NCBI GenBank assembly: GCA_963836075.1
Contig: CAWIIB010000009.1
Span: forward strand, 96,001-160,000
Length of the DNA: 64,000 nucleotides
Source: an uncultured Acidobacteriota bacterium
GTDB lineage: Bacteria; Acidobacteriota; JAQAZP01
Direction of reading: 5' to 3'
Within the stretch, counting starts at the first letter, position 1; each line of letters begins with the position of its first letter. The notes below the pieces were generated by a model. That model did not search any database. It was not told where the DNA came from and worked only from the letters and a program-made list of their open reading frames with translations. The translations under genes were made by a program, and so were the position numbers. Shown one piece after another: positions 19,568-63,063 of the stretch.

Positions 19568-19587
19568 CCGGGAGGCGGCCGTACATG

Positions 19588-19617: not shown

Positions 19618-19636
19618 ACTTATCGCCTGCAGAAAA

Positions 19637-45258: not shown

Positions 45259-45347
45259 TGTTTCTGAGTATGCCAATGAGGAGGTCCTGACGCGGGAATT
45301 CCTGCGCGCCGGCTTCGGTTCCGGCCGGACGTAACCATGCGGTCTGA

Positions 45348-46883
45348 TCAGGCCCCCTTCAGCTGCTTCGAGAAATACTCCCGTGCCGGGTCGACGTACT
45401 CGGGGAGCATCCACTCGTTCTCCAGGTCATCGTTAATGTGATGGACCGAGACCAGTTTTTTGCGGCTGAAACGCCGGATGACCGGATGGAGATAGAAGGC
45501 TTCATGGGCCTGTTCCGGGGACGGGTCACGCATCACGCTGAACGGGTTGCCGGTGTGCTTGCCGTACTCCAGGCTGACCACGTAGTAGTCCCGCTCCCTG
45601 CCGAGGAAGGAGTTCGGGATGTGGTCCTTGCGCACATCCTCGTAGCAGCGGGCGGTGCCGTTCTTCCCATCCACCGCCACCACATCACAGAGGAATCCGG
45701 GCTGGAGAAAGACGCCCGGGGAGACGTTGATCCGGTGGATGACCTTCTGCAGCACTGACTCCACCGAAGCGGGGATCTCCTCCGCCGGCCAGGGTTTCCC
45801 GGAATAGCGCTCATCGAGGATCCTGCTCAGTGTGCGGATATTGTGGCGAAAGCCGTGAATGAAGCCCGACATGGTCTTCTTGTAGTCACAGGCCTGCATC
45901 AGGGTGCCGGCGAAATACATGTCCGGGACCTTGACCGATTCCCAGGCCGTGGTCTGGGCGGGCAGGCGATCGTCCTGCATCAGCTCGGGACGGCAGTTCT
46001 CGTCGAAAATCGAAGCGTCGAACCGGAATCCCGTGCAGCAGATCACGCGGTCGTAGACCAGTTCGCGGGTCTGGCCCATGGCGTGGCTGTATTTGATGTT
46101 CACGACGAACTTGCCGTCGCGCTTTCTGACCCGCTCCACGTCTGCATCGATGGCAGCGTTCTGGGACTTCAGCTGGTAGGTGTCGAGGAAATTGTTGTTG
46201 ACCGCCCGCAGGTTTCCCACGAAGTGGGTGTCCCAGGCCATGCGTATCGAATTCGGGCTGACCATGTGCAGGACAGCAGTCACCCCGAACAGGTGTTCGG
46301 CGGTTTCGAAGGCGGAGTTGCTCTTGCCGATGAGCAGGACGCGCTTGTTGCGGTAGTTCCGGAGGTTCATCGAGTGATTCCCGTAGGTCTCACAGAGCTC
46401 GATTCCAGGAATATCGGGGATGTACTCTTTCGAAACCCCGGTGGCGACGATCAGCCGGGACGATTTGAAGACCCGGTTCCGGGAATCCTTGACACGGAAG
46501 ATCCCGTCCTTGCGGGAGACCCTGGTCACCCGCGTATCGTGCTCCACCTTGATTTTGTAGCGCTTCTTGAAATCGTTCAGATAGCGGCGGAGGTCGGACG
46601 GTTTTGGAAAGTACGAATCGGTGTAGGTGGTGAATTTGAAATGGTCATCCGAGAGGAGGGAGTTCCAGTCCCAGCGGAGGTTCTGTTCCTGGTCCTTGAT
46701 GCCGGTATGCACCTTGTTGATCGAGATCAGGTATCCGTGCCTCGGCATTTCCTTGAAGAATGAACCGGGCTTTGCCGCCTGGTCGAGGATCAGATAACTG
46801 TAGCCCCGGCGAGCCAGATAGTAGCCCATCTGCAGGCCGGCCGGCCCCGCACCGATCACGAGAAAGTCATACTGATTTTTCAT
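45348..46883 (-). CDS. FAD/NAD(P)-dependent oxidoreductase (FOXRED2-like)
   Basis: IGAGPAGLQ, RWDWNSLLSD, GKSNSAFETA, SGFIHGFRHN. Confidence 0.78.
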   Translation of the reverse strand: MKNQYDFLVIGAGPAGLQMGYYLARRGYSYLILDQAAKPGSFFKEMPRHGYLISINKVHTGIKDQEQNLRWDWNSLLSDDHFKFTTYTDSYFPKPSDLRRYLNDFKKRYKIKVEHDTRVTRVSRKDGIFRVKDSRNRVFKSSRLIVATGVSKEYIPDIPGIELCETYGNHSMNLRNYRNKRVLLIGKSNSAFETAEHLFGVTAVLHMVSPNSIRMAWDTHFVGNLRAVNNNFLDTYQLKSQNAAIDADVERVRKRDGKFVVNIKYSHAMGQTRELVYDRVICCTGFRFDASIFDENCRPELMQDDRLPAQTTAWESVKVPDMYFAGTLMQACDYKKTMSGFIHGFRHNIRTLSRILDERYSGKPWPAEEIPASVESVLQKVIHRINVSPGVFLQPGFLCDVVAVDGKNGTARCYEDVRKDHIPNSFLGRERDYYVVSLEYGKHTGNPFSVMRDPSPEQAHEAFYLHPVIRRFSRKKLVSVHHINDDLENEWMLPEYVDPAREYFSKQLKGA

Positions 46884-47299
46884 CGCACGTTCTACTCACT
46901 GGATACTCTTCCCCTGCCGCAACAAGCATGACGAGAGTAATCCCGTTTCAAAATTTTGGCGGAGGCTGGATTTGTTCACATTCAGGATGGGCAAGCTGCG
47001 AATTTTTTGCAATCCGCTTGATTCTGCGCATCCCTTACACTGCTATTCTGAAATTTTATATCAATGAACGGCGGATACTGTCGGGCTTTGAGTGACAACC
47101 GTCAAACAATTCGGCTGTTTCGAAAGATAACTATTGCTGTTTGTTTGCGGTACGTCAGGAGAATGCCTATTATCCCTCGGCTCGACTGGGGCGAGGCGGG
47201 ACGTGAGCTTCTCCCTGCGGGATAATATTTTTTTCGAGTATGTGCAAATCATGGTAATCTGATCAGCGTAGGTTATCAGTAAATGGAATTTGAACGGCC

Positions 47300-48628
47300 A
47301 TGGTGCATACTCGATACCAGCAGAATTCATCGAGACCGGATAAGAGCAGTAAGGGATCCAGGTTCCGGAAAGCCTTGCTGCCGCTGGTCATTCTTCTTGC
47401 GACCCTTTCCATTGTCGATACGGCCTGGTGCGTCTACATTGATTCAAGGCTCGGTTTCACCTGGCAGAGGCTCGAGGGGGAAGGCACAAAGGTCGATTTC
47501 GAGATATTCTTCCCGCGGAGCCATACCCTTGCTGGATACGGGGATGACCTGTGGAGCTTCACAGTGCTCCAGCTGGAGGAGCCTGCCACACTGGAGATCA
47601 GCAGTGACGCGGTGGAGAACCGCATCTTGAAATTGCATGGTCTGTTCGACCGGGCGAGGTTCTTCAACGTTCAGGTGGTGGAATCCGAAGAAGACCCATT
47701 CTCCTACACCATTGACGAATCCCGGAAATATCCATTTCCCCAGGCCTATCCCGACGACGTTCTGGAATTTCTCAGGCCGGGCAGGAACATCGAGTCGGAC
47801 CGCCTGGAGATACGGACCCTGGCCCAGGAGCTGGCCGGTGAATTCGCTGATCCCGAATCCGGCTGCATGTACCGGGCGGTGAAGGCGATCATCAACTCGG
47901 GATACTTCCATTACATGCCCTATGACTACGAGAACCTTGAGGAGGTGACCAACGGCTGTGTCACCACTTCCTTTGCCGATGGACGGGTGCGATCCGCCTT
48001 TGAAGTGTACCAGGATTACATCGGTGTCTGTTCATCCAAAGCCAGGCTGGGGGCTGCGCTCTGCCGGTCGATCGGCATCCCCGCGCGGACGGTGAGCAAG
48101 ACCGGTCTGCACGCCTGGACCGAAATGTGGATCAACGGCCTGGGCTGGGTGCCGGCGGAATATACCGGTGCCGAGCGGTTCCCCAAGCCGATCACCGGCA
48201 ACAATCACACCACCTCGAGACTTTCCACCCGTGATGACTCCATCTGGTTCACCTGGGATCCGCCCTGTCTCTCGGAGTTCAACATGCTGAGTTCTGACGA
48301 GTACAACTTCGAGTTCGCCGTGGCCAGCACCATCATCGCCCATCCCGCCGGCGAGATCCTCCATGACAGCCCTGAATGTCGCAGAGCGTTCATTCCCGTG
48401 GCGCTGAGAATCGGTATCTATTGTGTTGCGGACGAAAAGGGGCTCACTCTCTACACGCTGAACGTGCTCACCGGTGAACTGCTGGACACGGATATCCTCC
48501 CCGGGCAGGCAGGGGTGGCGCTGATCTCCATCTCCCCGGATTCCACGAAGAGCATCCAGTATCGCAAGGTCGGTGAATACGTCATCCTGAATATACTCTC
48601 CAGCCCTCGGGTCCCAGCCTCGGAATGA
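47300..48628 (+). CDS. Exported transglutaminase-like domain protein
   Basis: GVCSSKARLGAALCRSIGIPAR...HAWTE..INGLGWVPAE (Cys-His-acid triad); N-terminal hydrophobic segment. Confidence 0.75.
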   Translation: MVHTRYQQNSSRPDKSSKGSRFRKALLPLVILLATLSIVDTAWCVYIDSRLGFTWQRLEGEGTKVDFEIFFPRSHTLAGYGDDLWSFTVLQLEEPATLEISSDAVENRILKLHGLFDRARFFNVQVVESEEDPFSYTIDESRKYPFPQAYPDDVLEFLRPGRNIESDRLEIRTLAQELAGEFADPESGCMYRAVKAIINSGYFHYMPYDYENLEEVTNGCVTTSFADGRVRSAFEVYQDYIGVCSSKARLGAALCRSIGIPARTVSKTGLHAWTEMWINGLGWVPAEYTGAERFPKPITGNNHTTSRLSTRDDSIWFTWDPPCLSEFNMLSSDEYNFEFAVASTIIAHPAGEILHDSPECRRAFIPVALRIGIYCVADEKGLTLYTLNVLTGELLDTDILPGQAGVALISISPDSTKSIQYRKVGEYVILNILSSPRVPASE

Positions 48629-48833
48629 CAGAAGAATGGGGACTGGCCGATCGCTGCCGGGAATCACTCTTTCTTCGCGATCCCCAGCTGCACGCCGCAG
48701 GCCCGGGCAACGGGTATGGCAACCGATGGCCCGGCACCGGCAGGGGGCGGCCGGATGCGCCGGTGAAATGTTGACGACGGAAAGGGAAACCCATATATTC
48801 AATTGCAGTCTTGACTGATGATCTCGAAGGGGG

Positions 48834-50069
48834 GTGTTTCCGTTCCGCTCAATCCTCTCCGTTGGACTGATTCTGGCGTTTTCCGCCGGAGGGACAATTG
48901 CGGCAGGAGCTCAAACATTCGCCTTCCGCGGGGAAGCGTCCATCGCAGGAATACTCAGCGACGCTGAAGAGGCCGACCGTCAGGCTACGGCCCGCTACCT
49001 TCCCGAGTTGTCCCTTAATATCCACCTTGCCAAATCCGTGACTCTGGATTTTTCTGCTGCAGCCAACCTGTGGGCCTATCAAGCCTCGGTCTCCGACGGG
49101 GAGAACCTGTCCGAAAGCGGCGCCGATCCCTATCGCGCCTGGGTGCGGCTTTCCGACCCCCGCTTCGAGGTTCGCGCCGGGCTGCAAAAGATCTCCTTCG
49201 GATCGGCAAGTATTTTCCGCGCCCTGATGTGGTTCGACCGTATCGACCCTCGTGACCCGCTGCAACTCACAGAGGGGGTCTGGGGCCTGCTGTGCCGGGC
49301 CTACCTGCCGGGCAATGCCAACGCTTGGGGATGGGTCCTGAGAGGAGAGGACGAGCGGAAGGGGTGGGAGTTCATCCCGACCGAGGACGGGACCGTCGAA
49401 GGGGGGGGAAGACTTCAGGTGCCGCTCGGGCCGGGGGAAGCGGCGGTCACCTATCACCGGCGACGGTTCGATCTCGCCTCCCTCGGTGGCGTTCCCGCCG
49501 GTGTCTACTCCGGGTCGGGACCGGAAGACCGCTTCGCCGTCGACGGAAAGTGGGATCTCGAACTGGGTGTCTGGGTGGAAGGGGCGTTCATCCGGCAGGA
49601 GTCGGAGGCCCTGGAGCGCACCTGGAGCCGCGCGCTGAGTCTCGGCGCGGATTACACCTTCGAGATCGGCAATGGCCTGACGGTTCTTTCCGAATACTTC
49701 TACAAGGATAACCCGTCCCTTGCGGTGATCCCTCCCGCCGGGGGCGCCGGGAGTATCGAGCCGGAGCGCTCGCGCAGTGCTCCCGCGGAGCCGTTCCCGC
49801 CCCAGGTCCAGCTCGCGTCGTTCACGGCCAGCTACCCCTTCGGTGTCCTCGATCGGGTGGCCCTGGCCGCCTACCGGGACCTGGACAGTTCCGACTGGTA
49901 CAGCCTCCTGGAGTGGCGGCGCAGTTACGATCGCTGGCGGTTCCACTTCCTGGCGTTCTGGAATCCCGAGCAAAGCTCCCTGTTCCCTCCCTCTTCCGCG
50001 GGGAACGCCGCCAGTTCCGGGTCGCTGTCGGGCCGGGGCGTACAACTTATCGTGGTGTTCAACCATTGA
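48834..50069 (+). CDS. Probable outer-membrane beta-barrel protein
   Basis: Signal peptide, alternating aromatic beta strands, RAGLQKISFGSA...DPRDPLQLTEG, terminal QLIVVFNH. Confidence 0.65.
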   Translation: MFPFRSILSVGLILAFSAGGTIAAGAQTFAFRGEASIAGILSDAEEADRQATARYLPELSLNIHLAKSVTLDFSAAANLWAYQASVSDGENLSESGADPYRAWVRLSDPRFEVRAGLQKISFGSASIFRALMWFDRIDPRDPLQLTEGVWGLLCRAYLPGNANAWGWVLRGEDERKGWEFIPTEDGTVEGGGRLQVPLGPGEAAVTYHRRRFDLASLGGVPAGVYSGSGPEDRFAVDGKWDLELGVWVEGAFIRQESEALERTWSRALSLGADYTFEIGNGLTVLSEYFYKDNPSLAVIPPAGGAGSIEPERSRSAPAEPFPPQVQLASFTASYPFGVLDRVALAAYRDLDSSDWYSLLEWRRSYDRWRFHFLAFWNPEQSSLFPPSSAGNAASSGSLSGRGVQLIVVFNH

Positions 50070-50086
50070 CCGGTGAGCGCAAGCAG

Positions 50087-50815
50087 ATGGAAAACGGCAT
50101 TCTGATCCAGACCGACGGGCTGTCCAAGCGCTACCCCATGGGCGCCGGCGAAATCATCGCTCTCGAGGATATCAGCCTCACCTTCGGTGAAGGGGAGTTC
50201 AGCGGCATCGTCGGCCCCAGCGGCTCGGGAAAGACAACCCTGCTCAACATCATCGGGACACTGGACAGCCCGACCAGGGGCACGGCCCGGGTATTGGGAC
50301 AACACGTCGAGCGTCTGACGCACCGGGCGGCCGCCGAACTCCGCAGCCGCCACATCGGTTTCATCTTCCAGACCTTTTGCCTCCTCCAGTTCTACACGGT
50401 TTTCGAAAATGTCGAGTTTCCGCTCCTCCTGCTGGGCATGACCGCGCGAGACCGCCGACGGGCGGTGATGGAGGCGCTGGAACGGGTGGGCCTGGCCGAT
50501 CGGGCGGCCTCCAGGCCCAACCAGCTCTCGGGCGGGCAGAGCCAGCGAGTCGCCATCTCCCGGGCCATCGTCAAGAAGCCCCGGCTGGTCCTGGCCGACG
50601 AGCCGACGGCCAATCTGGACGCGGAAAATTCGCACAATATCCTCCAGACCATGGAGCGGCTGAATAGAGACCTGGGCACGACCTTCCTCTTCGCCACGCA
50701 TGACGAGAAGGTCATCCGCTACCTGCGCCGGACCATCACCCTCGAGGACGGCCGGGTGGCCGGCGACCTCGCGGCACATGCGGGGCGGAGCGAACAGGAG
50801 GATACCGGTCCATGA
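50087..50815 (+). CDS. ABC transporter ATPase (LolD/MacB-like)
   Basis: GPSGSGKTT, LSGGQSQRVAI, LADEPTANLD, THD. Confidence 0.93.
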   Translation: MENGILIQTDGLSKRYPMGAGEIIALEDISLTFGEGEFSGIVGPSGSGKTTLLNIIGTLDSPTRGTARVLGQHVERLTHRAAAELRSRHIGFIFQTFCLLQFYTVFENVEFPLLLLGMTARDRRRAVMEALERVGLADRAASRPNQLSGGQSQRVAISRAIVKKPRLVLADEPTANLDAENSHNILQTMERLNRDLGTTFLFATHDEKVIRYLRRTITLEDGRVAGDLAAHAGRSEQEDTGP

Positions 50816-52023
50816 CCCTGCTGAAACTTGCGATACGCAACCTGATCGGCGCGGGGCTTCGCACGGTCCTCAACATTCTCGTCCTGACCCTGGTCTTCCT
50901 GGCCATCGTGGCTTCGCTGGGCCTGCTCGAGGGGATGAACGAGCAGACCTCCCGGGCGATGGTGGAGGCCGAGTACGGCGGGGGCCAGTTCTGGCATCCC
51001 GGATACGATCCCTATGATCCGCTGACCCTGGAGGACGCCCGCGGGATCCCGCCCCCGGAACTGCTCGATCTCATGGCCCGGGGCGAGGCGGCCGCCATCC
51101 TGGTTGTCCAGGGCACCATGTATCCCGGGGGGCGCCTGCGCCCGGTCCTCCTCAAGGGTATCGATCCCGGACAGGGCATTCTCGAGCTCCCCACCGCAGC
51201 CCTGGGCGCCTCACCGGACGAGCCTGACGGCATACCGGTTCTGCTGGGGTCGCGGATGGCCGAGAATACCGGCCTGGCCCCGGGGGACGTCGTCACCCTT
51301 CAGTGGCGGGACGTGAACGGGACCATCGACGCCCGGGAGGCCCGGGTGGTCCAGATCATGAACACGCCCGTTCAAAGCGTGGACCTGAACCAGGTCTGGC
51401 TGCCCCTGGGCCGGCTGCAGGAGATGATGGGCGCGCCCCGGGAAGCGACCCTGGCCGTGGCGCGCAGGGGCCTGCCGGGCCCTGCCGCGGGTCTGCAGGC
51501 TCCGGCCGCTTCCCTTGCCGGGGCGGACTGGGTGTTTCAGCGGCCCGATGACCTTCTCGCCGACATCCGGAATCTGGTGCGGGCCAAGAAGATCGGGGCC
51601 GGCATCATCTATGCCCTGCTGATCTTCCTGGCGATGATCGCCATCTTCGACACGCAGGTCCTGTCGCTGTTCCACCGCAGGAAGGAGATCGGGACGCTGA
51701 TGGCCCTGGGGATGACCCGGGGAAGGATCATGGCCCTCTTCGTCCTCGAGGGCGGCCTCCACGGGGTCCTGGCCATCGGCGCCGGTGCTGTATTCGGCAC
51801 CCCGCTCCTCTGGCGCTTCAGCCGGGTCGGCTGGAAACTGAGCACCCAGGCGGACAGTTACGGCTACGCCCTGGGAGACACCCTCTACCCGGTGTTCACC
51901 CCCGGAATTCTCATCCAGACCGGGCTGCTGCTCCTCCTGATCACGGCGCTGGTCAGCTGGATCCCGACCCGCAGCATATTGTCACTGACGCCCACCGAAG
52001 CGCTTCGGGGGAGGGCGGCATGA
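50812..52023 (+). CDS. ABC permease (LolC/E, FtsX family)
   Basis: LAIRNL N-terminus, large periplasmic domain, RRKEIGTLMALGM. Confidence 0.88.
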   Translation: MTLLKLAIRNLIGAGLRTVLNILVLTLVFLAIVASLGLLEGMNEQTSRAMVEAEYGGGQFWHPGYDPYDPLTLEDARGIPPPELLDLMARGEAAAILVVQGTMYPGGRLRPVLLKGIDPGQGILELPTAALGASPDEPDGIPVLLGSRMAENTGLAPGDVVTLQWRDVNGTIDAREARVVQIMNTPVQSVDLNQVWLPLGRLQEMMGAPREATLAVARRGLPGPAAGLQAPAASLAGADWVFQRPDDLLADIRNLVRAKKIGAGIIYALLIFLAMIAIFDTQVLSLFHRRKEIGTLMALGMTRGRIMALFVLEGGLHGVLAIGAGAVFGTPLLWRFSRVGWKLSTQADSYGYALGDTLYPVFTPGILIQTGLLLLLITALVSWIPTRSILSLTPTEALRGRAA

Positions 52024-53294
52024 TCCTCTTCCTGCTCAAGGGGCTCCTCAGAGACAGATCCCGCAGCTTCTTCCCGGTAATCACGGTTCTGGCGGGAGTG
52101 GCTCTCACGGTGGTGGCCTACAGCTGGATCCGAGGCACGGAAGCGGACATCATCCGGGCCAACGCCAGCTTCAGCACCGGCCATCTCAGGCTGACGACCC
52201 GCGGCTACCTCAACGAACCGGCCCAGACGGCCAATGAACTGGCCCTGGGGGATCTGGCCGGGTCCCTGGCCCTGCTCGAGGAAACCTGCCCCGGGCTGGA
52301 CTGGGTTCCCCGGATACGTTTTTCCGGTCTCTTCGACCTGCCGGACGCCCGGGGCGAAACCCGGGCCCAGGCTCCGGTGGCGGGGCTCGCTCTCGATCTG
52401 CTCAACCCGCACGGCGCCGAGCGAGAGATCCTCAACCTGGAGCGGGCCCTCACGTCCGGCCGGCTGCCGGCCGCCCCAAGCGAGATTCTGATCAGCGAAA
52501 CCCTCGCCGAACGATTGGGCCTTCGGCTCGGCGAAAGCGGGACATTCATCGGAACCACCCGCTTCGGGGGCCTGACCACCGCCAACTTCGAGGTGGTGGG
52601 GACCATCCGTTTCGGCATCACGGCCATGGATCGCGGAGCGATCCTCGGTGACATCAGCGGACTGGGGCCGGCCCTGGACATGGAGAACGCCGCCGGGGAA
52701 ATCCTGGGATTCTTCCCCGACCGCATCTACCGGCCGCATATCAGCGCCGAGATGACCGATGCGTTCAACCGGCGTTTCGAAGACCCCGGCGACGAGTTCT
52801 CGCTCCGCCTCACCCACCTGCGGAGCGATCCCGGGCTCGCCACACTGCTGGACCTGGCCGGAATCGTGACCGGAGCGCTGATCGCCCTTTTCGTGGCCGT
52901 GATGTCAATCGTGCTCTGGAACGCCGGGCTGATGGGGTCTCTCCGGCGCTACGGGGAGTTCGGTGTGCGCCTGGCCGTGGGCGAGAAGCACGGCCACATC
53001 TACGGTTCACTGCTGGTGGAGGCCCTGACTATCGGCGTTTTAGGCTCGCTGCTGGGGACGGCCCTGGGGCTGGGCCTCTCCCACTACCTCCAGGTCCGCG
53101 GCCTGAGCATCGCCCCGTTTCTGAAGAACGCCTCCCTGCTCATTTCCGACGTCCTCCGCGCCCGGGTGACGCTGGGGAGCTTCTTCATCGGCTTCGTGCC
53201 GGGTTTGCTGGCCACCCTCGTGGGTACGGCGGTCTCTGGTATTGGGATTTACCGGCGGCGGACCTCGCAGCTGGCCAAGGAGTTTGAAGGATGA
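52020..53294 (+). CDS. ABC permease (LolC/E, FtsX family)
   Basis: Same topology; RRYGEFGVRLAVGE. Confidence 0.88.
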   Translation: MILFLLKGLLRDRSRSFFPVITVLAGVALTVVAYSWIRGTEADIIRANASFSTGHLRLTTRGYLNEPAQTANELALGDLAGSLALLEETCPGLDWVPRIRFSGLFDLPDARGETRAQAPVAGLALDLLNPHGAEREILNLERALTSGRLPAAPSEILISETLAERLGLRLGESGTFIGTTRFGGLTTANFEVVGTIRFGITAMDRGAILGDISGLGPALDMENAAGEILGFFPDRIYRPHISAEMTDAFNRRFEDPGDEFSLRLTHLRSDPGLATLLDLAGIVTGALIALFVAVMSIVLWNAGLMGSLRRYGEFGVRLAVGEKHGHIYGSLLVEALTIGVLGSLLGTALGLGLSHYLQVRGLSIAPFLKNASLLISDVLRARVTLGSFFIGFVPGLLATLVGTAVSGIGIYRRRTSQLAKEFEG

Positions 53295-54076
53295 GGACGA
53301 TCAGCATTATCGGTTGCGCCCTGGCGCTCTTCTCCCTTGCCGCAACGGTACCGCTCGCGGGTTCCGGCGGTGCGGATGACGCGGCGGGCGCCGGGCCATT
53401 GACCGGGGAGCAGATTCTCGTGCGGGTCGACGAAAACCTGGCCTCGGAAACCAAGATCTCTCTTTCCCGCATGGTCATCCAGGGGCGGGCCGGCTCCCGG
53501 ACCGTGGAGTCGCGGTCCTGGATCAGAGGCACGGAGGAGTCCTTCACCGAGTATCTGGCCCCCCCCAGGGACCGGGGGACCAAGATGCTGAAACTGGGCG
53601 ACCAGCTCTGGACCTACTTCCCCGACACCGACCGTACCATCCTCATCGCCGGCCATATGCTGCGGCAATCCGTGATGGGATCGGACCTCTCCTATGAGGA
53701 CCTGATGGAAGACCCCCATCTCTTCGACATGTACTCGGCGGAGGTCCTCAGGACGGAGCCGTGTGACGGTCGACCGTGCTGGGTCCTGCGGCTTGAGGCG
53801 AAGGACACCTCGCCGGCCTACCACGCCCGGGAGATGTGGGTGGACCAGGAGCGCTTCGTGCCCCTCAGGGAGAGCCGGTTCGCCAAGAGCGGAAAGCTGC
53901 TGAAGACCACCGAGGTGCGGCGAGTGGAACGACAGGGTGACCGCTGGGTGGCGCGGGAAATGGTCTTCAAGGACGTGCTGAAATCGGGGGAGGGAACCGT
54001 TTTTATCATCGAATCGATCGAGTTTGATGCCGAAATCCCGGGCTACTTCTTTACCAAGGCAGCCCTGCGGCGCTGA
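53291..54076 (+). CDS. LolA-like outer membrane lipoprotein-sorting protein
   Basis: Signal peptide; GTKMLK...LWTY, MGSDLSYEDL motifs. Confidence 0.85.
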   Translation: MRTISIIGCALALFSLAATVPLAGSGGADDAAGAGPLTGEQILVRVDENLASETKISLSRMVIQGRAGSRTVESRSWIRGTEESFTEYLAPPRDRGTKMLKLGDQLWTYFPDTDRTILIAGHMLRQSVMGSDLSYEDLMEDPHLFDMYSAEVLRTEPCDGRPCWVLRLEAKDTSPAYHAREMWVDQERFVPLRESRFAKSGKLLKTTEVRRVERQGDRWVAREMVFKDVLKSGEGTVFIIESIEFDAEIPGYFFTKAALRR

Positions 54077-54095
54077 GCGGAGAAAAGGGCGAGGA

Positions 54096-56546
54096 ATGAA
54101 GCGGAAGATCATCTGGCTGGACAGCCGCAAGGCCCTGGATCGCACGCTGACCGGGGGAAAGGCAGCGAACCTGGCGCGGCTCGTGTCTCTCGGCTTCCCC
54201 GTGCCCAAGGGGTTCGTGATCCCGCCGGAAATTGAGCTGAAGGGCAGCCGGTCCCCGGGAACTCTCCTGGGCTCGGGGCGGCGTCGGCTCGATGGTCCGC
54301 TGGCCGTGCGATCCTCTCTGGTGGGGGAGGATGGAACGAATCATTCCTTTGCCGGACAACTGGAAACAGTCCTCGGCGTCGAGGGAGAGAAGCCGCTGCT
54401 CACCGCCGTCGCTCAGGTGCGATCCTCCGTGTTTCATCCCCGGATCCGGCGATATGCCGAACAGCATGACCTGCTGGAGCTCCGGTCCTCTTCCCGCCCC
54501 TCCCGGTCGCCCGGCGGGGTGGCGGATATATTCAGGATGGCCGTCCTGGTCCAGGAAATGGTCCCGGCATTGGCCGCCGGCGTGGCGTTCAGCGCCGACC
54601 CCCTGACGGGCCGGCGCACCGTGATCATCGAGGCGGTGCCACGTCATGGCGACGCTTTACTCCAGGGCCGGATCGAGCCCGACCGGTTCATCATCGACCC
54701 CCGGGGGGAGCTGGCCCTGGAGGAAAGAAAGACCCTGAGCCGCCAGGATCTCCCATCCGGAATCATCAAGGCCCTCGGGGACACGGTTCTGCAGGTCGCG
54801 GCCCGTTTCGGCACGCCTCAGGATGTCGAGTGGGCCTGGGACGGGAAACGGATGTACCTCCTGCAAGCCCGTCCGATCACCTCTCTGGCGGGGCAGAGCG
54901 TCTATTCGAAAAAGCTGCTGGGGGACATGATTCCCGGACCTATCAAGCCCCTGGTCTGGTCCACGAATGTTCTCGGCATGGTGGAAGGTGTCTTCGGGGA
55001 CGTGTTCACCCGGCTCATCGGAAAGAACGACCACGACTTCAGGCGCATCCTGCGAAGAATCCGGTCCCGGGCTTACGTGGACACGACCTTCGTCGGCCGG
55101 CTCCTGGCCGAGGTCGGGTTGCCCGGGAATCTCTTCGAAGCCGTCGGCAGGGAGGAGAAGGTGCCGGTGCGGGTCGGGCTGAACAGGACGCTTCTCGCCC
55201 GGGCGCCGAGGTTCTTCATCTTCTGCCTGCGCCATGCCCGGCTGGAGAAAAAACTGTCTTCCGGTCTCCGGGAACACGATCGGGCCCTCGACGCTTTCCG
55301 CAAGGCCGAGCTGGCATCGATGCCCGCATCCCGGCTGTTCGACCGCGCGGACGAACTGCTCATGCTCCACCGCAAGCTCCAGGGCTCCATCATGTTCGCC
55401 AGCATGAGCCTCGGCATTCGCACCCGCCTGTTGAAGCGTTACGTGGCCCGGCACGCCGCGGAAGTCGATCCGTCCCACCTCCTGCTCGGCCGGCGGGGTT
55501 TGAAATCCACCGCGCCGAATCGCGAACTGAGCGCCCTGGCGGCGGAAGCGGCCAGCCTGGATCAGGAGCAGGTATCCCTCTTCCTGACCGGAGACACCGA
55601 GGCCATAGGTCAGGGCCTCACCGGGTGCGCGGCGGGAACAGCGATCATCGCCGGGGTGGAACGGTTCCTCGGGCGCTATGGATTCCTCAGCGCCAACGGC
55701 ACCAATTTCGGCGAGCCCAGCTGGGAGGAGGAGCCCGGACCGGTGTGGAAAGCCCTGGGGCGGATGATCCGCAGCGGGCAGCCCAATCAGATCGACAACA
55801 CCGCTGTCCGCGAGGGGGCGAGGAAGGCCGTCCTGGACCGGCTGGGGCCATTCCGGCGGATCCATTTTGCCAGACGCCTGGCATCCGTTGCCCGTTACCT
55901 GGAGCTTCGGGAAGGGATCAGCTCGCTGATGACGGAGGACACCTACGAACTCCGGCGGCTCTTCCTCGGGATCGGCCGCCGACTGGTGGAGCAGGGCCGA
56001 ACGGATGACGCGGAAGACGTGTTTCTCCTTCACGCCGAGGAACTTCGCCGGGCGCTGGGCGGGGACGGTGACACGGGGGAACTGAGGGCGCTGATCGAGG
56101 AGCGCCGGGCTGAACTCGACCGGGACCGGGACGCGGAACTGCCCGAGACGATCGTGGGAGAAGGAATCCCGGAAGCGGCCACCGTGACCGAATCCGGCCC
56201 GCTGTTGACGGGGATGGGCGTCAGCACCGGCGTGGTGCGGGGGACGGCCCGCGTGGTCAGGGAACTGGACGACGCTCCGGCCAGCCTGACCAGGGGTGAC
56301 ATCCTGATCGTTCCCTTTTCCGATGTCGGGTGGACGCCGCTCTTCGCCACGGTGGGTGGCATCGTCGCGGAATGCGGCGGGCAGCTCTCCCACACGGCCA
56401 TCGTGGCCCGGGAGTACGGCCTGCCGGCGGTGGTGGGCGTGCGGGGGGTGATGAGGGAAATCAGGGACGGACAGGTGATAACCGTGGACGGGGGAAAGGG
56501 GCATATCCATCTTGCGCAGGCGGCTCCGCCAGGCGAATCAGCCTGA
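54096..56546 (+). CDS. PEP-utilising-enzyme family dikinase with rifampin-phosphotransferase-like architecture
   Basis: N-terminal ATP-grasp (GGKAANL, AVRSS..GED, SFAGQ, QDVEWA, LQARPIT); central helical domain; C-terminal phospho-His swivel (GGQLSHTAIVAREYG); no PEP/pyruvate barrel. Confidence 0.85.
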   Translation: MKRKIIWLDSRKALDRTLTGGKAANLARLVSLGFPVPKGFVIPPEIELKGSRSPGTLLGSGRRRLDGPLAVRSSLVGEDGTNHSFAGQLETVLGVEGEKPLLTAVAQVRSSVFHPRIRRYAEQHDLLELRSSSRPSRSPGGVADIFRMAVLVQEMVPALAAGVAFSADPLTGRRTVIIEAVPRHGDALLQGRIEPDRFIIDPRGELALEERKTLSRQDLPSGIIKALGDTVLQVAARFGTPQDVEWAWDGKRMYLLQARPITSLAGQSVYSKKLLGDMIPGPIKPLVWSTNVLGMVEGVFGDVFTRLIGKNDHDFRRILRRIRSRAYVDTTFVGRLLAEVGLPGNLFEAVGREEKVPVRVGLNRTLLARAPRFFIFCLRHARLEKKLSSGLREHDRALDAFRKAELASMPASRLFDRADELLMLHRKLQGSIMFASMSLGIRTRLLKRYVARHAAEVDPSHLLLGRRGLKSTAPNRELSALAAEAASLDQEQVSLFLTGDTEAIGQGLTGCAAGTAIIAGVERFLGRYGFLSANGTNFGEPSWEEEPGPVWKALGRMIRSGQPNQIDNTAVREGARKAVLDRLGPFRRIHFARRLASVARYLELREGISSLMTEDTYELRRLFLGIGRRLVEQGRTDDAEDVFLLHAEELRRALGGDGDTGELRALIEERRAELDRDRDAELPETIVGEGIPEAATVTESGPLLTGMGVSTGVVRGTARVVRELDDAPASLTRGDILIVPFSDVGWTPLFATVGGIVAECGGQLSHTAIVAREYGLPAVVGVRGVMREIRDGQVITVDGGKGHIHLAQAAPPGESA

Positions 56547-56625
56547 GGACGCGTTGCGGGACATTCGGCGCCACAGCCCCGGGCAGGACGAACCGGCAGC
56601 CGAGAACGTCTTTCTGGAGGCAGGG

Positions 56626-57339
56626 ATGAACATCCAACTCGCGGGATTGAGCCTGCTCACCGGCTACCTGGTCGGCAGCATTTCCATGGCCCGGATCGTC
56701 AGCGCCCTGGCCGCGCCCGGGAAAAAAGTGCCCACGGTCACCGAACTGAGGCTCGAGGGGAGCGACCGGGTCTTTCACCTCGGAACGGTCAGCGCTTCCT
56801 CGGTGTCGGTGCAGCACGGCTCGAAATACGGTTTCCTGGTCTTCCTCCTGGACATGATCAAGGTCATCATTCCGGTGGCGCTGTTCAGGCACTTCTTCCC
56901 GGGCTCATCCTATTTCCTGCTGGTGGCCACCGCGGCCGTGGCCGGGCACATCTGGCCGGTCTATCACCGATTCCGGGGAGGGCGGGGCCTCTCCGCCATC
57001 TACGGCACCCTCCTCGTCGTCGACTGGATCGGGATGTTCATCGCCGGCGCGGGGGGGATGGTCGTGGGGCTGTTCATCCTCCGCTCAGTCCTTCTCGCCT
57101 ACGTGCTCGGGCCGTGGCTGGTGGTACCCTGGATCTGGTGGCGCACCGGTGACCCGGCCCACGTTGCTTTTGCGGTTGCGGCTGCCGTATTTTTTACCAT
57201 CTCCATGGTGCCTGAAATCAGGCAGTGGAGGAAGATTTCGAAAGAGGAACAGTGGGACGACTATCAGGCGGTGATGCAGCTCTCCGGGATGGGCAGGGGA
57301 ATTCTCAAGCTGGCGAAGAAGATCGGGGTGGTGAAGTAG
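56626..57339 (+). CDS. Divergent PlsY-family membrane acyltransferase
   Basis: GYLVGSI, LDMIK, AGHIWPVYHRFRGGRG; motifs 1 and 3 degenerate; GGAGG RBS. Confidence 0.75.
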   Translation: MNIQLAGLSLLTGYLVGSISMARIVSALAAPGKKVPTVTELRLEGSDRVFHLGTVSASSVSVQHGSKYGFLVFLLDMIKVIIPVALFRHFFPGSSYFLLVATAAVAGHIWPVYHRFRGGRGLSAIYGTLLVVDWIGMFIAGAGGMVVGLFILRSVLLAYVLGPWLVVPWIWWRTGDPAHVAFAVAAAVFFTISMVPEIRQWRKISKEEQWDDYQAVMQLSGMGRGILKLAKKIGVVK

Positions 57340-58031
57340 CCCCGGGCGCCGCTCCCATCGTCGTGCTGGGTGGTTTGCTCAGCACCCCCTCCCTCTACCG
57401 GGAGATGGGGGACACCCTCCGGCGACTTGCCGGGGCGCCGGTGCTGGTGGTCCCGGTTTCCCGCCTGGAATGGGCGGCGACCGTTTCCGGATGGGGGTGG
57501 GAGCGGATCCTGCTGAAACTGCGGGAGACCGTCGACCGGGCGTTCCGGCTCGGCGAGGACCGGCGGGTCACGCTGGTGGGGCACAGCGCGGGCGGGGTCA
57601 TCGGCAGGCTGTATCTCAGCCCCGAGCCGTTCAGGGGTCACCGCTTCCGGGGACTGGATCAGGTACGCCACCTCATCACCCTGGGCAGCCCCCATCTGAA
57701 CGTTCGGGGCGCCCGCCTGCGCAGTTGGGTGGACCGGACCTTGCCCGGCGCCTATTTCGCTCCGCGGGTCGCCTATTCCACGGTGGCCGGCCGGGCCGTT
57801 CGGGGCGATCGGCGAGGCCCTGTGAAGGCACGGCTGGCCTATCTGCTGTACCGTCAGCTTTGCGGCGAGGGGTCCCAATGGGGAGACGGGGTTGTTCCCC
57901 TCGCTTCGGCACGTCTGGAGGGTGCCGCCAACCTCACTCTGGATGCCGTGGCCCATGCACCCATCGGGGGGAAGCTCTGGTACGGGACGCCCGAGATGGT
58001 AAGGGAGTGGTGGGAACAGTCAAGGCCGTGA
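57252..58031 (+). CDS. Alpha/beta hydrolase (lipase/esterase, PGAP1-like); start uncertain
   Basis: PIVVLGG, LVGHSAGG, LITLGSPH, GDGVVP, VAH. Confidence 0.8.
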   Translation: MGRLSGGDAALRDGQGNSQAGEEDRGGEVAPGAAPIVVLGGLLSTPSLYREMGDTLRRLAGAPVLVVPVSRLEWAATVSGWGWERILLKLRETVDRAFRLGEDRRVTLVGHSAGGVIGRLYLSPEPFRGHRFRGLDQVRHLITLGSPHLNVRGARLRSWVDRTLPGAYFAPRVAYSTVAGRAVRGDRRGPVKARLAYLLYRQLCGEGSQWGDGVVPLASARLEGAANLTLDAVAHAPIGGKLWYGTPEMVREWWEQSRP

Positions 58032-58252
58032 AGGGAGGGAGGCGGCTCCTCCCGAAACGGTGGTGCGTCTGTTTTTCGCGCTACTGTTCGTGCCGCCATG
58101 AAGGGATGGGATATGATCTGCCGTGGCCGGAGCCTGAAGCACGGCCGCGCACCGGACCAAGGTCCCGGGGGAGGGACGGTGGTCTTTATCCCCGGACCGT
58201 CCTGACCGGGAGTCAAGCCGGTGCTGATCAGGGCGGCGGAGAGGGAGCGAGC

Positions 58253-59344
58253 ATGGAGGAGCATCTCTTCATTACCGGGGGCACCGGCTTTATCGGGAGC
58301 CGCCTCCTCAGGCTGTGGCTCGAACGGACCAACGCGCTGATCACGCTGCTCATCCGGCCACGCGCCGGTTCCAGCGCCAAAAGTCAACGACGGCGCGCGC
58401 TGGCCGCCCTTCCCAAAGAATGGCGCAATACCTGCTCCGGGCGAATCAGGCTGGTCCGGGGCGATCTCGCGCTTCCGCAACTGGGCATTCAACCCGACGA
58501 CTGGGCGGCGCTTGCCAGGAGCGTCACCCACATCGTCCACGCCGGGGCTGTGCTGCGTTTCAACCTGGCACTCGACCAGGCACGGCGGATCAACACGAAC
58601 GGGACAGCGGCGGTCCTCGACCTGGCCCGATGCTGCCGCCGCCTCGTCCGGTTCGATTACCTCAGCACAGCCTACGTCGCCAGCCGCTGTCAGGGGGTGG
58701 TGCTGGAGGACACATGCCGGGTTTTCGAGGAGCACAACAACAGCTACGAGCGCAGCAAGTATGAGGCCGAGCTTCTGATCAGGGGGGCGATGGCGGAAGT
58801 GCCCGCGGCCATCCTGCGGCCAACGGTCGTGACCTGCGATTTGCAGAGCGGCTATGCGCCGGCCACCAGCGCCTTCTTCCGCTTGCTGCATGCCGTGGCG
58901 AGCGGCATTCTCACCGTACTGCCCGGGCGGCCGGGGACCCTGCTCGACCTGGTGCCCTTGGACTATATTGCCGAAGCGGCTTTTGCCATCGGCCGGCAAT
59001 CCGATACCGCGGGCCGCTGCTTCCACCTCAGCGCCGGCCGGGAGAACCTCATCAGCCTTGGTGATCTGCGCGATCTGGCCTGTGCCGGCTTCGGACGCGA
59101 AACGGTGGAGATCCTGTCCCCGGATCTATTCGCGCACTGGGCGGCAGACCGCTGCAAGGTGATGCCCGAGACGAGCGCCCACCTGGAGGAGATCAGCCTC
59201 TACCTGCCATATCTCAGTCACCATCCTCACTTTGACAATGCGAATGCCATGCGTGCGCTGGACGGGACCGCTGTGCACATGGTGGCCGTCCCGGACTATT
59301 TCGATCGTGTCGCAGCCTACGTCGGCCGCCTGCTTCGGAAGTGA
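58253..59344 (+). CDS. Extended SDR, fatty acyl-CoA/thioester reductase (male-sterility NAD-binding domain)
   Basis: FITGGTGFIG, GDLALPQLG, HAGAVLRF, STAYV, NSYERSK, LRPTVV, DLVPLDY. Confidence 0.82.
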   Translation: MEEHLFITGGTGFIGSRLLRLWLERTNALITLLIRPRAGSSAKSQRRRALAALPKEWRNTCSGRIRLVRGDLALPQLGIQPDDWAALARSVTHIVHAGAVLRFNLALDQARRINTNGTAAVLDLARCCRRLVRFDYLSTAYVASRCQGVVLEDTCRVFEEHNNSYERSKYEAELLIRGAMAEVPAAILRPTVVTCDLQSGYAPATSAFFRLLHAVASGILTVLPGRPGTLLDLVPLDYIAEAAFAIGRQSDTAGRCFHLSAGRENLISLGDLRDLACAGFGRETVEILSPDLFAHWAADRCKVMPETSAHLEEISLYLPYLSHHPHFDNANAMRALDGTAVHMVAVPDYFDRVAAYVGRLLRK

Positions 59345-59472
59345 CGCTCACAGTTTCCCGTCGCTGGCCGCTGGTCGCTGTTCTGCTGTCCCGGGGATTC
59401 CACCCAAGATTCCTCATCCGCATCTCGCGGCCGCCGCCGGGGAGGGCCGGAGGCTGGTGCCGGCCGTACATG

Positions 59473-59502
59473 GAAAAGCCACCCGTTTGCGGGTGGCTTT
59501 TC
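59473..59502. terminator. Bidirectional intrinsic terminator (copy 2)
   Basis: Same perfect 13-bp inverted repeat, again between convergent genes. Confidence 0.85.
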
Positions 59503-59521
59503 ACATATCGCCTGAAGACAA

Positions 59522-59704
59522 TCAGCCGCCGATGGACGCGCCGCCGCCGGTCTCCGCCTCGGAGATGCAATTCTTCAGCTCTTCCTCGGTGGCCTCGGAT
59601 TTCTTTTTCAGAGCGCTCTGGGGGCAGATGAACTCATCCCCATTGGCGTTCTTGACGATGATGAAGCTCTCTTTTCTGCCGGTGAACGTTTCGACGTCGG
59701 ACAT
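59522..59704 (-). CDS. 60-aa two-Cys, Gly-Gly-ending protein, copy 2 (V47I)
   Basis: AGGAGGAA RBS; 59/60 aa identical to copy 1. Confidence 0.8.
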   Translation of the reverse strand: MSDVETFTGRKESFIIVKNANGDEFICPQSALKKKSEATEEELKNCISEAETGGGASIGG

Positions 59705-59791
59705 TGTTCTTCCTCCTTGTGGGGGTTTCAGTAGTTCGGCACCTGCTTCTGCGGACGGTCCCCGAACGGCGCAAAAAGAAGTAGCCGCAGG

Positions 59792-60365: not shown

Positions 60366-61010
60366 CTACCTCCTTTCGGCAGTGTCCACCCGCTCTTCGG
60401 CGTAGCCCGCGATACGGTCCACGTCGATGCGGAACGGCCCTGCCTGTTTGCCGGCAATCAGAAGTCCGAGCTGGCGGATCCGCCCGGGGTCCAGCGGCGG
60501 GACACCGGGGACCTGCCGGCCGCGCCAGGTGGTTTCAAATCCCGAGAAGGGCAGCCGCACCGTGACCCATTCGTCCGCCCGGGTTTCGAACGTCGATTGC
60601 CAGGCAACACCGTCGAACCGGTCGTCGGTGCGCAGGCGAAAGCTGTAGCGTTTGCCGTCGCCTCGCACCCGCAAGGTTATCCCGTCATACCCTTCGAGGC
60701 CGTATGCCCCGGGAACGGAGCGCACCGAAGCGAAACCGCCGTTGTTCTCCAGGGAGACCGACCCGCGAAAGACACCGAAATCGTCGCCGTCCGCCAGGAA
60801 CTCGCTCCGCGACAGTCCGCCCATCACTCCGTCGTTGACAATCTGCCAGGTTCCCCGATCTCCCCCGGCACTGAAATCGATGAGCGCCCGCTCCTCCATC
60901 TTACTCCCGCCTTCCCCGGAAACCGGCCCGGCCACCGCCAGCGAGAGCAGCGTCATCAGCACGCCCCGCTGGAAAACCTCGAACTGTCTGCTGTTGAGTA
61001 TCCGTTTCAT
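60366..61010 (-). CDS. CIA30 family protein
   Basis: WQIVNDGVMGGLS, VSLENNGGFASVR, VRGDGKRY. Confidence 0.88.
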   Translation of the reverse strand: MKRILNSRQFEVFQRGVLMTLLSLAVAGPVSGEGGSKMEERALIDFSAGGDRGTWQIVNDGVMGGLSRSEFLADGDDFGVFRGSVSLENNGGFASVRSVPGAYGLEGYDGITLRVRGDGKRYSFRLRTDDRFDGVAWQSTFETRADEWVTVRLPFSGFETTWRGRQVPGVPPLDPGRIRQLGLLIAGKQAGPFRIDVDRIAGYAEERVDTAERR

Positions 61011-61042
61011 GATCATCCTCTTTTCAACGTTCCACCGCAAGC

Positions 61043-61558
61043 TCACCAGCCCATGGAGCCCGGCTGGCCCTTGAACGGCCCGACCAGGTTGCTGGTTATC
61101 CAACCGCCGTAAAAACCGCCGGGCTGGGGCCGGGCCCGCTCGCCGTCGACCAGGCAGGCGCCCATCAGTTCGGCGTAGAAGGCCACGTGGTCCTGGATGG
61201 CGCTGAATGCCTCCTTGGGCGAGCGGTAGCGCCAGGCCGCGCGGGCCGCAATCCTCTCCCCCACCCGAAGGTCGAGATAGTCTGCCGTCCCCTTCCACTC
61301 GCAGAACGACGAACCGCCGTCCGCGCTGAGCAGAGGCATGCGGATGTCGCCGGGCGGGATGTAGTAGACCGGCGGGTGGCTGGTCTCCAGCACCCGCATC
61401 GCCCTCGTCGTGTCGGCGATCACCTCGTTGTTGAAGATCACCTGGACGTGCCCGTGAAACCGCTCCACCCGCGGCGGCCGCGGATAGTCCCACACCGACT
61501 CGATGAGAGAAGCCCGCCGCGATTTCGCTCTCTTTCCCTTTCCCTTCGCCATGTTCAT
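61043..61558 (-). CDS. DUF427 family protein
   Basis: ESVWDYPRPP, LETSHPPVYYIP, SFCEWKG, FYGGWIT. Confidence 0.85.
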   Translation of the reverse strand: MNMAKGKGKRAKSRRASLIESVWDYPRPPRVERFHGHVQVIFNNEVIADTTRAMRVLETSHPPVYYIPPGDIRMPLLSADGGSSFCEWKGTADYLDLRVGERIAARAAWRYRSPKEAFSAIQDHVAFYAELMGACLVDGERARPQPGGFYGGWITSNLVGPFKGQPGSMGW

Positions 61559-62499: not shown

Positions 62500-63063
62500 C
62501 TACGGTTTTCCACTGCCGCTTCCACTGCCCTGCGCCGTCATCTCGAACTCGCCGGGATCGTAGCCCTGCTCCCGGAGAATGGTCTGCACCGCCGCCCACT
62601 GTTCGTCGCCGAGCGCTGCCGACCGGGCGAGGACCCAGCCGTAGCGGCGGTCGGGGTGCCCGATCACCGCGTATTCGTAACCCGGACCGAGGCCAATGAT
62701 CCAGTAGTCGCCCCAGAAGAGCTGTAACCCGAACAGCCGCACGAAGCTGACTTCCAGTTTCGCCCCGGTTGCGGCGTCGACCACCCGGGCGACACCCGCG
62801 GCCTCGCTCACGCCGCCGTCGGCCTCGATGCAGCGGTTCACCACCCCGATCATCCCGTCCTCCCGCAGGGTGTACTCGGCGGTGGTCCCGCTCGCGCACT
62901 TCCGCTGAAAACGGTTGGGGATCTTCGCGATCTCGTACCACAGCCCGGCGTAGCGCTGAAGGTCCACCGAGTCCACGGTCTGCGGCGGCCGCTTACCGGC
63001 CGCTCCGGCGGTTGCCGCCGCGAGCCCGAAAATGATCAGGCACCCGATAAGGAGCTTGTCCAC
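62500..63063 (-). CDS. blc: Lipocalin (Blc-like)
   Basis: VDLQRYAGLWYEIA, GDYWII, YGWVLARS; signal peptide. Confidence 0.88.
   Translation of the reverse strand: MDKLLIGCLIIFGLAAATAGAAGKRPPQTVDSVDLQRYAGLWYEIAKIPNRFQRKCASGTTAEYTLREDGMIGVVNRCIEADGGVSEAAGVARVVDAATGAKLEVSFVRLFGLQLFWGDYWIIGLGPGYEYAVIGHPDRRYGWVLARSAALGDEQWAAVQTILREQGYDPGEFEMTAQGSGSGSGKP

Follow-up and report, generated by a model that had tools for sequence, protein, structure and literature searches.

What does a gene set do in which a dikinase of the rifampin phosphotransferase (RPH) architecture stands beside a membrane protein resembling the acyltransferase PlsY, downstream of a Lol-like transporter? The question is raised by positions 48834-59344 of a 64,000-nucleotide stretch of DNA from an uncultured Acidobacteriota bacterium (contig CAWIIB010000009.1, positions 96,001 to 160,000), hereafter called the window, whose coordinates are used throughout. 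An initial annotation, made from the sequence, had proposed an undescribed lipid pathway, either (a) a salvage route ending in PlsY transfer to glycerol-3-phosphate (G3P) or (b) a route that makes a novel lipid and exports it in a Lol-like manner. We observed that the pair recurs across many phyla, the dikinase and the divergent PlsY-like protein being the conserved core of the set. The island that carries them probably makes or processes a membrane lipid. Our preferred reading, to which we give somewhat less than an even chance, is that the pair makes an acyl-phosphate and acylates an acceptor other than G3P, and that the resulting envelope lipid is exported outward by the transporter.

The dikinase and its PlsY-like partner

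The RPH-architecture dikinase of 816 residues (54096-56546, + strand; PPDK_N 8.7e-43, PEP-utilizers mobile domain 1e-21) is followed by the PlsY-like seven-transmembrane (7-TM) transferase (56626-57339, + strand; G3P_acyltransf PF02660, 9.7e-20). A scan of one genome per species gave 322 stretches encoding relatives of the PlsY-like protein, and the locus counts given here use the 80 that were retained. Of the 80 loci, 71 have a dikinase relative at most 3 kb from the PlsY-like gene, and so do 54 of the 59 loci having at least 2.6 kb on each side (the exceptions are L050, L061, L069, L071 and L087). According to their record labels, these 80 loci come from Acidobacteriota (Aminicenantes included), Calditrichota, Zixiibacteriota, Cloacimonadota, Fibrobacterota, WOR-3, Chloroflexota, Actinomycetota, Bacteroidota, Bacillota, Thermotogota and one Bathyarchaeota metagenome-assembled genome (MAG; L068). 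In one MAG locus (L024:5194-7767), the dikinase gene carries a single in-frame stop, possibly a sequencing error or the sign of a pseudogene.

Fusions gave a second view of the pair. A dikinase search of 1.84 billion representatives returned 34,510 matches, and 15 unusually long proteins were taken from the top 150. Seven of them possess an N-terminal PF02660 domain and are PlsY-domain::dikinase fusions; the others are two DUF454::dikinase proteins, one DUF116::dikinase, one fusion to a short-chain dehydrogenase/reductase (SDR::dikinase) and four doubled dikinases. Judged by these domain assignments, small membrane proteins are a recurrent fusion partner of the dikinase. Because both neighbourhood and fusion join the dikinase and the PlsY-like protein, we consider them to be partners. 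No paper connecting the PlsY, dikinase and LolA-like/FtsX families was found in the full-text literature, subscription journals and supplements aside. The carriers of the pair include the cultured Acidaminobacter hydrogenoformans DSM 2784 (L074) and Gudongella sp. (L088), which makes the question directly testable.

We then compared the PlsY-like protein with PlsY itself. It matched PF02660 at 71.7 bits (gathering score, 24.1) and scored 71.5 bits against the PlsY equivalog TIGR00023, under the cut-off of 137.2. Its predicted structure (pLDDT 83.2) superposed on aaPlsY (5XJ7) with a Z of 19.7 and a root-mean-square deviation of 3.3 Å over 191 of 193 residues, the next unrelated match having a Z of 6.2. 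As modelled, the protein has the complete PlsY fold. For the active site, a subfamily profile of 18 members was compared with aaPlsY (5XJ5), which it matched at 4.5e-12, and, by profile-profile alignment (hhalign), with nine canonical PlsY of the phylum, with a probability of 99.4%. In the aaPlsY study, the acyl-phosphate head group is held in a 'phosphate hole' formed by His92 and the Lys104-Ala107 backbone, Ala40 and Thr41 hold the carbonyl, and the T41S mutant has 45% of its activity left (PMC5700162). Both alignments retain this acyl-phosphate site in the subfamily, with a nearly invariant His92 (GH(I)WP), the GGxG loop and Ala40. The loop reads GGRG, Lys104 being replaced by Arg; positions 39-41 read S-A-S/T, so that Thr41 is present as Ser or Thr, and Asn37 is replaced by Thr. 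In the 18 sequences, which represent the window's clade, Ala40, Ser/Thr41, His92 and GGxG were invariant or nearly so.

The acceptor side differed. The aaPlsY study gives Ser35, Arg45, Lys104 and Asn180 as the G3P contacts, with the 2-OH held by Ser142 and His177 (PMC5700162). In the subfamily, Arg45 is replaced by Val, Ala, Ile or Tyr, and the motif-3 residues His177, Asn180, Arg183 and Glu189 have no aligned counterpart, both alignments ending before motif 3; the H, N, R and E of this motif are invariant across the nine canonical PlsY. The retention of Ser35 depends on the register, hhalign placing it in an invariant E-G-S-D that is followed by a 6-residue insertion, and the C-terminus carries an invariant P-E ... 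W ... S-G-M-G-R-G tail. When the G3P pocket (Ser35, Arg45, Asn180, His177, Ser142) was looked for in the sequence alignments, the PlsY-like protein did not present it. We read these results as a predicted donor site for a phosphate-activated acyl group that has been kept and a G3P acceptor site that has been lost. Since Arg45 and the G3P-holding motif-3 residues are missing, synthesis of lysophosphatidic acid by the PlsY-like protein is unlikely.

The subfamily comprises 266 clusters at E <= 1e-5, with identities down to 48% among the 120 listed, and many of them are named 'PlsY' in their source. In a tree, 79 subfamily sequences (the window's included) were split from the nine canonical PlsY by a branch of 0.99 (SH-aLRT 99); because the loci were picked by subfamily similarity, the tree shows the separation of the clade and not its completeness. 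Elsewhere in the genome, on one other contig, a canonical PlsY (183.5 bits to PF02660) and a PlsX (390 bits) are encoded, and two congeneric genomes possess the canonical PlsY only. We considered whether the PlsY-like protein could replace PlsY and rejected this role because the genome has canonical PlsX and PlsY. PlsY is counted as a marker of bacterial-type phospholipid synthesis, and this clade retains the fold and the predicted donor site without the glycerol-phosphate site. As the clade is annotated as PlsY at the source and has one relative in the archaeal-labelled MAG L068, genome-based conclusions on membrane lipids would therefore be in error where they treat it as PlsY.

The dikinase (GGQLSHTAIVAREYGLPAV) is composed of an ATP-grasp domain, a central domain of ~350 residues that belongs to no family and a swivel-His domain. 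The third phosphoenolpyruvate (PEP)/pyruvate domain, a TIM barrel, is absent, with Pfam recognizing PPDK_N and PEP-utilizers only. The best solved relative is the Listeria RPH (RPH-Lm; 5FBS), at 4.2e-46, and only residues 54-264 and 619-806 were aligned; the SH motif of the dikinase is aligned with the TH motif of RPH-Lm, and the catalytic His of the swivel domain is conserved. At the sequence level, residues 265-618 gave no phmmer alignment to 5FBS, its rifampin-binding (RIF-binding) domain included. This central domain is strongly conserved among 25 module dikinases, in which Arg325, Arg605, Arg620 and Arg621 are among the invariant residues. The score against the rifampin phosphotransferase model NF041857 was 240.8 for a cut-off of 999, and every equivalog cut-off was missed by far. 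A complex prediction for dikinase residues 265-816 and the PlsY-like protein, with separate alignments, scored 0.00 and gave no answer either way.

Transporter, accessory genes and genomic setting

The open reading frame (ORF) map and a Pfam/NCBIfam scan gave nine genes at 48834-59344, all on the + strand, and bore out the co-orientation and the domains named by the initial annotation. Five of these genes, upstream of the pair, encode the transporter. The outer-membrane beta-barrel protein (48834-50069, + strand; 411 aa, with a signal peptide and no Pfam or NCBIfam family) was modelled as a barrel of ~18 strands behind the signal helix (pLDDT 75.4, pTM 0.71). Its best solved matches by Foldseek were general porins and AlgE, at a generic level only (TM 0.43-0.56), and these matches neither single out nor exclude a particular family such as FadL. 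A sigma-70-like promoter match, a consensus match only (48771-48799, + strand; TTGACG-17-TATATT, 10/12), stands just upstream of this first gene; five promoter-like sites were counted across the region for 1.1 expected.

The ABC (ATP-binding cassette) ATPase of the LolD/MacB/DevA type (50087-50815, + strand; ABC_tran 1.4e-34, starting with MENGIL...) scored 225.1 against LolD TIGR02211 (cut-off 307.75), 194 bits against the DevA family and 175 bits against YbbA, and is 63-76% identical in linked loci. It is followed by type VII ABC permease 1 (50812-52023, + strand; FtsX 6.7e-19, MacB_PCD 4.5e-08) and permease 2 (52020-53294, + strand; FtsX 8.1e-13, MacB_PCD 2.2e-06), and by a periplasmic LolA_like protein with a signal peptide (53291-54076, + strand; PF17131, 2.1e-56, 190.9 bits); the genome contains no other PF17131 match above cut-off. 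Against lolCE, permease 1 reached 46.9 bits for a cut-off of 362.45, and the genome contains a 353-bit lolCE match elsewhere. These genes were therefore rejected as the housekeeping Lol system, on the missed equivalog scores and the lolCE match elsewhere. The term 'Lol-like' proposed initially describes the architecture, with one ATPase, two MacB_PCD+FtsX permeases and a LolA-superfamily carrier; it does not extend to the LolD and LolCE equivalog scores.

Within 10 kb of the PlsY-like gene, a MacB-type permease was found in 37 of the 80 loci, a LolA-like gene in 30 and a barrel gene in 25. The five-gene set occurs in three arrangements, upstream in the same orientation (the window's case), downstream in the reverse orientation (Aminicenantes-type) or downstream in the same orientation (Bacteroidales). 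Monoderm loci, 10 in number, encode an ATPase and a fused double permease (~860 residues) instead.

Adjacent genes overlap by 4 bases at three junctions (50812/50815, 52020/52023 and 53291/53294). With the preferred starts, the other junctions are gaps of 17, 19 and 79 bases, with 221 bases ahead of the reductase gene, and the PlsY-like stop is overlapped by the hydrolase ORF. The ORFs of the ATPase, the dikinase and the PlsY-like protein open at 49913, 54024 and 56512; the later starts at 50087, 54096 and 56626 are probably the correct ones, because the homologues begin there.

Downstream of the pair, a cytoplasmic alpha/beta serine hydrolase (57225-58031, + strand) gave weak matches to PGAP1, DUF676 and Palm_thioest. 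Its conserved part begins at ~57354 and its start codon is uncertain, the codon at 57336 being GTA, which is no start. The catalytic triad of Ser (GHSxGG; GHSAGG in the window), Asp (WGDGxVP) and His was invariant in 10 of 10 aligned sequences, and none of these 10 has a signal peptide. Of the 80 loci, 18 have the hydrolase gene after the PlsY-like gene, always within 3 kb, and all the hydrolase-bearing loci belong to the Acidobacteriota/Calditrichota/Zixiibacteriota/Anaerolineae group. The last gene encodes a stand-alone SDR of the FAR/thioester-reductase type (58253-59344, + strand; NAD_binding_4 6.4e-50, 170.1 bits), which scored 128.8 against TIGR01746, under the cut-off of 213.35. Reduction of an acyl-thioester to an aldehyde or alcohol would be its predicted activity, and neither a carrier-protein gene nor a ligase gene was found in the island by the Pfam/ORF scan.

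Only two of the 80 loci contain a FAR-like gene. In L038 it is 44% identical and separated by 18 bases from the preceding PlsY-like gene, with the motifs TGGTGFIG and YxxxK (Y165/K169) conserved; in L028 the match is weak and lies at a distance of 8 kb. A metagenome scan with the FAR protein alone returned no relative, and one with the two-sequence FAR alignment returned nine loci, seven of them convincing (E <= 1e-13). Six of these are evaluable, the seventh starting inside the gene. The PlsY-like gene is directly upstream in five of the six (L137 also retains the end of the dikinase gene; L138 is the exception). Since its orthologues sit directly after the PlsY-like gene, the FAR-like gene is a dedicated accessory of a sub-lineage of the module. 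Among the loci examined, hydrolase and reductase occur together in the window only. The initial annotation had proposed to test whether dikinase, PlsY, lipase and reductase co-occur or are fused across genomes: the linkage was very strong for the dikinase and the PlsY-like protein, was limited to one sub-group for the lipase and was rare for FAR when counted across the 80 loci, and was recovered when viewed from the FAR side.

Other partners of the pair were recurrent as well. Esterases of three folds stand near it, PGAP1-like in 18 loci, PETase-like in 8 and GDSL in 4, along with B12-binding radical SAM proteins in 6 loci, ICMT/PEMT-like methyltransferases in 4 and DUF454 proteins in 4. In seven Bacteroidales loci (L066, L075, L076, L079, L080, L082 and L083), a PETase-like hydrolase gene follows the transporter cassette, and downstream in L075, L076, L079 and L084 (Bacteroidales) we found an epimerase/3-beta-HSD-type SDR, a membrane protein of the steroid-5-alpha-reductase family and a 247-residue protein without assignment. 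A lipocalin gene (62500-63063, - strand; Lipocalin_2, 4.6e-46) stands 3 kb downstream of the FAR-like gene, in DNA common to the congeneric genomes, and another lipocalin gene directly follows the dikinase/PlsY-like/FAR set in L137 (3110-3685, - strand). An NmrA/NAD_binding_10 gene truncated at the end of the window (63218-64000, + strand) clustered by BLASTP with the module-adjacent DUF2867 genes of L076, L079 and L084 (Bacteroidales).

We next compared the DNA with two congeneric genomes, G001 and G002. A genome-specific segment of 14.2 kb (45249-59460), comprising the nine genes together with an FMO-like and a transglutaminase-like gene, is absent from both, and its flanks are conserved at 77-86%. 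On the left, the flank is a histidine-kinase gene ending at 45258, and on the right the shared sequence resumes from 59463. One contig of G001 has both flanks (window 45248 and 59474) at a distance of ~1.7 kb, with other DNA between them, and G002 has a different content. The FMO-like gene (- strand; Pyr_redox_3 4.2e-44) and the transglutaminase-core gene (+ strand) occupy 45348-48628, with a GC of 53-56% versus ~65%, and the 80 module loci contain no relative of either. Bordering the segment on the right, 59461-59730 is a 270-base direct repeat of 19576-19845 (98% identical), the two copies bracketing ~39.6 kb. What stands beside the first copy (to ~20588) continues, in G001 and G002, straight into window position 59750 and beyond, with the histidine-kinase block on the other side. 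From this difference in block order, we conclude that blocks have been rearranged at the island edge in this genome. The window contains no tRNA gene, and no integration signature beyond the 270-base repeat was found in it. The variable, rearranged site, the presence of the PlsY-like gene in 2 of the 401 phylum genomes sampled and a tree at odds with taxonomy together indicate that the island was horizontally acquired, and the comparison provides evidence that the whole block is a recent, accessory island. Just outside it is a gene for a CIA30-domain protein (60366-61493, - strand; 2.6e-48).

Proposed function and its alternatives

We infer the dikinase substrate, the acceptor, the product, the roles of hydrolase and reductase and the direction of transport as follows. 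With ATP and its swivelling His, the dikinase would phosphorylate a membrane-associated carboxylate, most likely a fatty acid, to an acyl-phosphate. The PlsY-like protein would bind this donor in its kept 'phosphate hole' and move the acyl group onto an acceptor other than G3P. The cytoplasmic hydrolase probably releases or edits the acyl substrate, and the likely task of the FAR-type reductase is to provide or alter a partner that is a fatty aldehyde or alcohol. If it works as LolCDE-LolA, DevBCA and YbbAP do, the transporter would draw a hydrophobic molecule from the outer leaflet of the inner membrane, and carrier and barrel would hand it across the periplasm to the outer membrane. The product would then be an accessory envelope lipid moved outward by the transporter. 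Reading (b) of the initial annotation, synthesis with Lol-like export of a novel lipid, fits the data better than (a); it is unproven, and the transporter also occurs alone. A wider version of this proposal is one we regard as rather unlikely: the dikinase would make acyl-phosphate from free fatty acid, the PlsY-like protein would acylate a non-G3P acceptor to give an undescribed lipid class delivered by the Lol-like system, and the pair would be ancient and mobile, spanning more than ten phyla and archaea.

Several observations weigh against our preferred reading. In six aligned fused proteins, His92 and the Ala40-Thr41 pair are replaced, so that canonical acyl-phosphate binding cannot hold for these forms; such degenerate sequences speak against a uniform mechanism. 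No acceptor-supplying gene conserved across the 80 loci was found. RPH (PMC4844700), HpeHI (PMC12167813), MarK (PMC12624787) and HapC (PMC13534948) are reported to phosphorylate a hydroxyl or enol oxygen; among these RPH-type enzymes, a carboxylate substrate would be without precedent and new for the family. The dikinase could accordingly act as its relatives do, phosphorylating a hydroxyl or phosphate group on a membrane lipid or a hydrophobic xenobiotic; the PlsY-fold protein would hold the substrate in the membrane or use the phospho-lipid, instead of being an acyltransferase, and the transporter would remove the modified product. We know of no characterised RPH-like dikinase that acts on a lipid or a carboxylate. 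RPH is also the best solved relative of the dikinase, and the persistence of fusions in which the PlsY domain has lost His92 and Thr41, like the DUF454 fusion, fits the presentation of a membrane substrate. We nevertheless hold this alternative to be improbable: the (near-)invariance of Ala40, Ser/Thr41, His92 and GGxG in the 18 sequences is hard to explain for a mere holder, and the central domain has no detectable sequence similarity to the RIF-binding domain.

The transporter brings further difficulties. In a sample of the phylum, the barrel is present in 17 of 401 genomes and the PlsY-like protein (E <= 1e-30) in 2 of 401, both counts including the window's genome. In seven of eight barrel loci, the full five-gene cassette stands without dikinase or PlsY-like gene in the ~9 kb available, and unrelated housekeeping genes are its neighbours. 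The transporter is thus an autonomous cassette, often and not obligatorily linked to the pair, and since it occurs alone it is not dedicated to the pair. In two of the seven stand-alone cassettes, a TetR gene stands directly upstream (L129:8756-9340 and L136:6661-7260). TetR genes are often found upstream of efflux pumps.

Such cassettes would suit a function in detoxification and salvage, in which the transporter expels free fatty acids or other membrane-active acids from the inner membrane and the pair activates those that enter and fixes them on a cellular lipid, which is reading (a) without G3P as the acceptor. The recurrence of esterases of three folds beside the pair and the kept acyl-phosphate site would agree with it, as would the accessory and patchy nature of the island, which resistance-type functions often share. 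Loss of the G3P clamp means that the product would not be a normal phospholipid precursor, the hydrolase lacks a signal peptide and so would release no acid outside the cell, and PlsX and PlsY are already in the genome; with these points against it, we give this explanation a small share of probability. Reading (a) in its first form, salvage ending in PlsY transfer to G3P, is weakened by the loss of Arg45, His177 and Asn180, by the presence of PlsX and canonical PlsY and by the direction of transport, since import is not known for any type VII ABC transporter.

A last difficulty is a class II chelatase-like gene, without an explained role, inside the module in 23 of the 80 loci. It lies between the dikinase and PlsY-like genes in L047, L049, L058, L062, L063 and L085, before the dikinase gene in L080, and is also present in L066, L076 and others. 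The protein, of 410-450 residues (Chloroflexota, Thermotogota, Bacteroidales), gave weak ferrochelatase/CbiX Pfam matches, and its nearest Atlas clusters are named 'sirohydrochlorin cobaltochelatase family' (0.95). This gene, between or beside the pair, raises the idea that the dikinase activates a tetrapyrrole or other non-lipid carboxylate, for example a propionate side chain, which the PlsY-like protein would esterify or amidate. A true ferrochelatase gene beside the dikinase gene in seven Acidimicrobiia loci, which are counted among the 23, and the six loci with B12-binding radical SAM genes could be read in the same way. The Acidimicrobiia loci are close kin, so that their synteny counts about once; the chelatase-like gene is absent from the window and from the 29 tree-nearest loci; and the LolA-like carriers and the lipase-like and FAR-like partners point to aliphatic lipids. 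We therefore regard a tetrapyrrole substrate as very improbable.

If the wider version of the proposal is true, the pair would constitute a third acyl-phosphate route beside PlsX and FakAB and a new reaction for the RPH family, and many genes annotated 'PlsY' would not be phospholipid enzymes. An acyl-phosphate made by the dikinase would be a new activation chemistry for lipid metabolism and for the RPH family. Through its linkage to a LolA-like carrier and a barrel, the pair also points to a candidate path by which a lipid that is not a protein could reach the outer membrane in phyla that have received little study.

Comparison with known systems

Like LolCDE-LolA, the cassette has one ATPase, two different MacB_PCD+FtsX permeases, a periplasmic LolA-superfamily carrier and 4-base gene overlaps. 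It differs in that its carrier belongs to PF17131, its outer-membrane partner is a barrel and not a LolB-type lipoprotein, and no cargo lipoprotein gene is present. DevBCA-TolC is a type VII ABC system for glycolipid export. Like it and like YbbAP-TesA (PMC12646458), the cassette would be a type VII ABC transporter handling hydrophobic or lipid molecules, with a genetic tie to a lipid hydrolase or to lipid synthesis genes. In contrast to YbbAP-TesA and DevBCA, the island hydrolase is cytoplasmic, a LolA-like carrier replaces the periplasmic esterase or membrane-fusion protein, and the linked enzymes are the dikinase and the PlsY-like protein.

With RPH-Lm (5FBS, 5HV1; PMC4844700), PigC/HapC, HpeHI and MarK, the island dikinase shares the three-part architecture without a PEP/pyruvate barrel and the swivel His. 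Its central substrate domain could not be aligned by sequence, and the enzyme is paired with, or fused to, a membrane protein. Finally, with the PlsX/PlsY and FakAB/PlsY systems (aaPlsY 5XJ5-5XJ9; PMC5700162), the pair has in common the 7-TM fold, the phosphate hole, His92 and a carbonyl site of the Ala40/Thr41 type, together with a partner of the kinase type, a possible source of a phosphate-activated donor. Here, this partner is an ATP-grasp/swivel-His dikinase instead of PlsX or FakA/FakB. Compared with canonical PlsY, the island protein is without Arg45, His177 and Asn180, carries a 6-residue insertion after the Ser35 equivalent and possesses a new SGMGRG tail.

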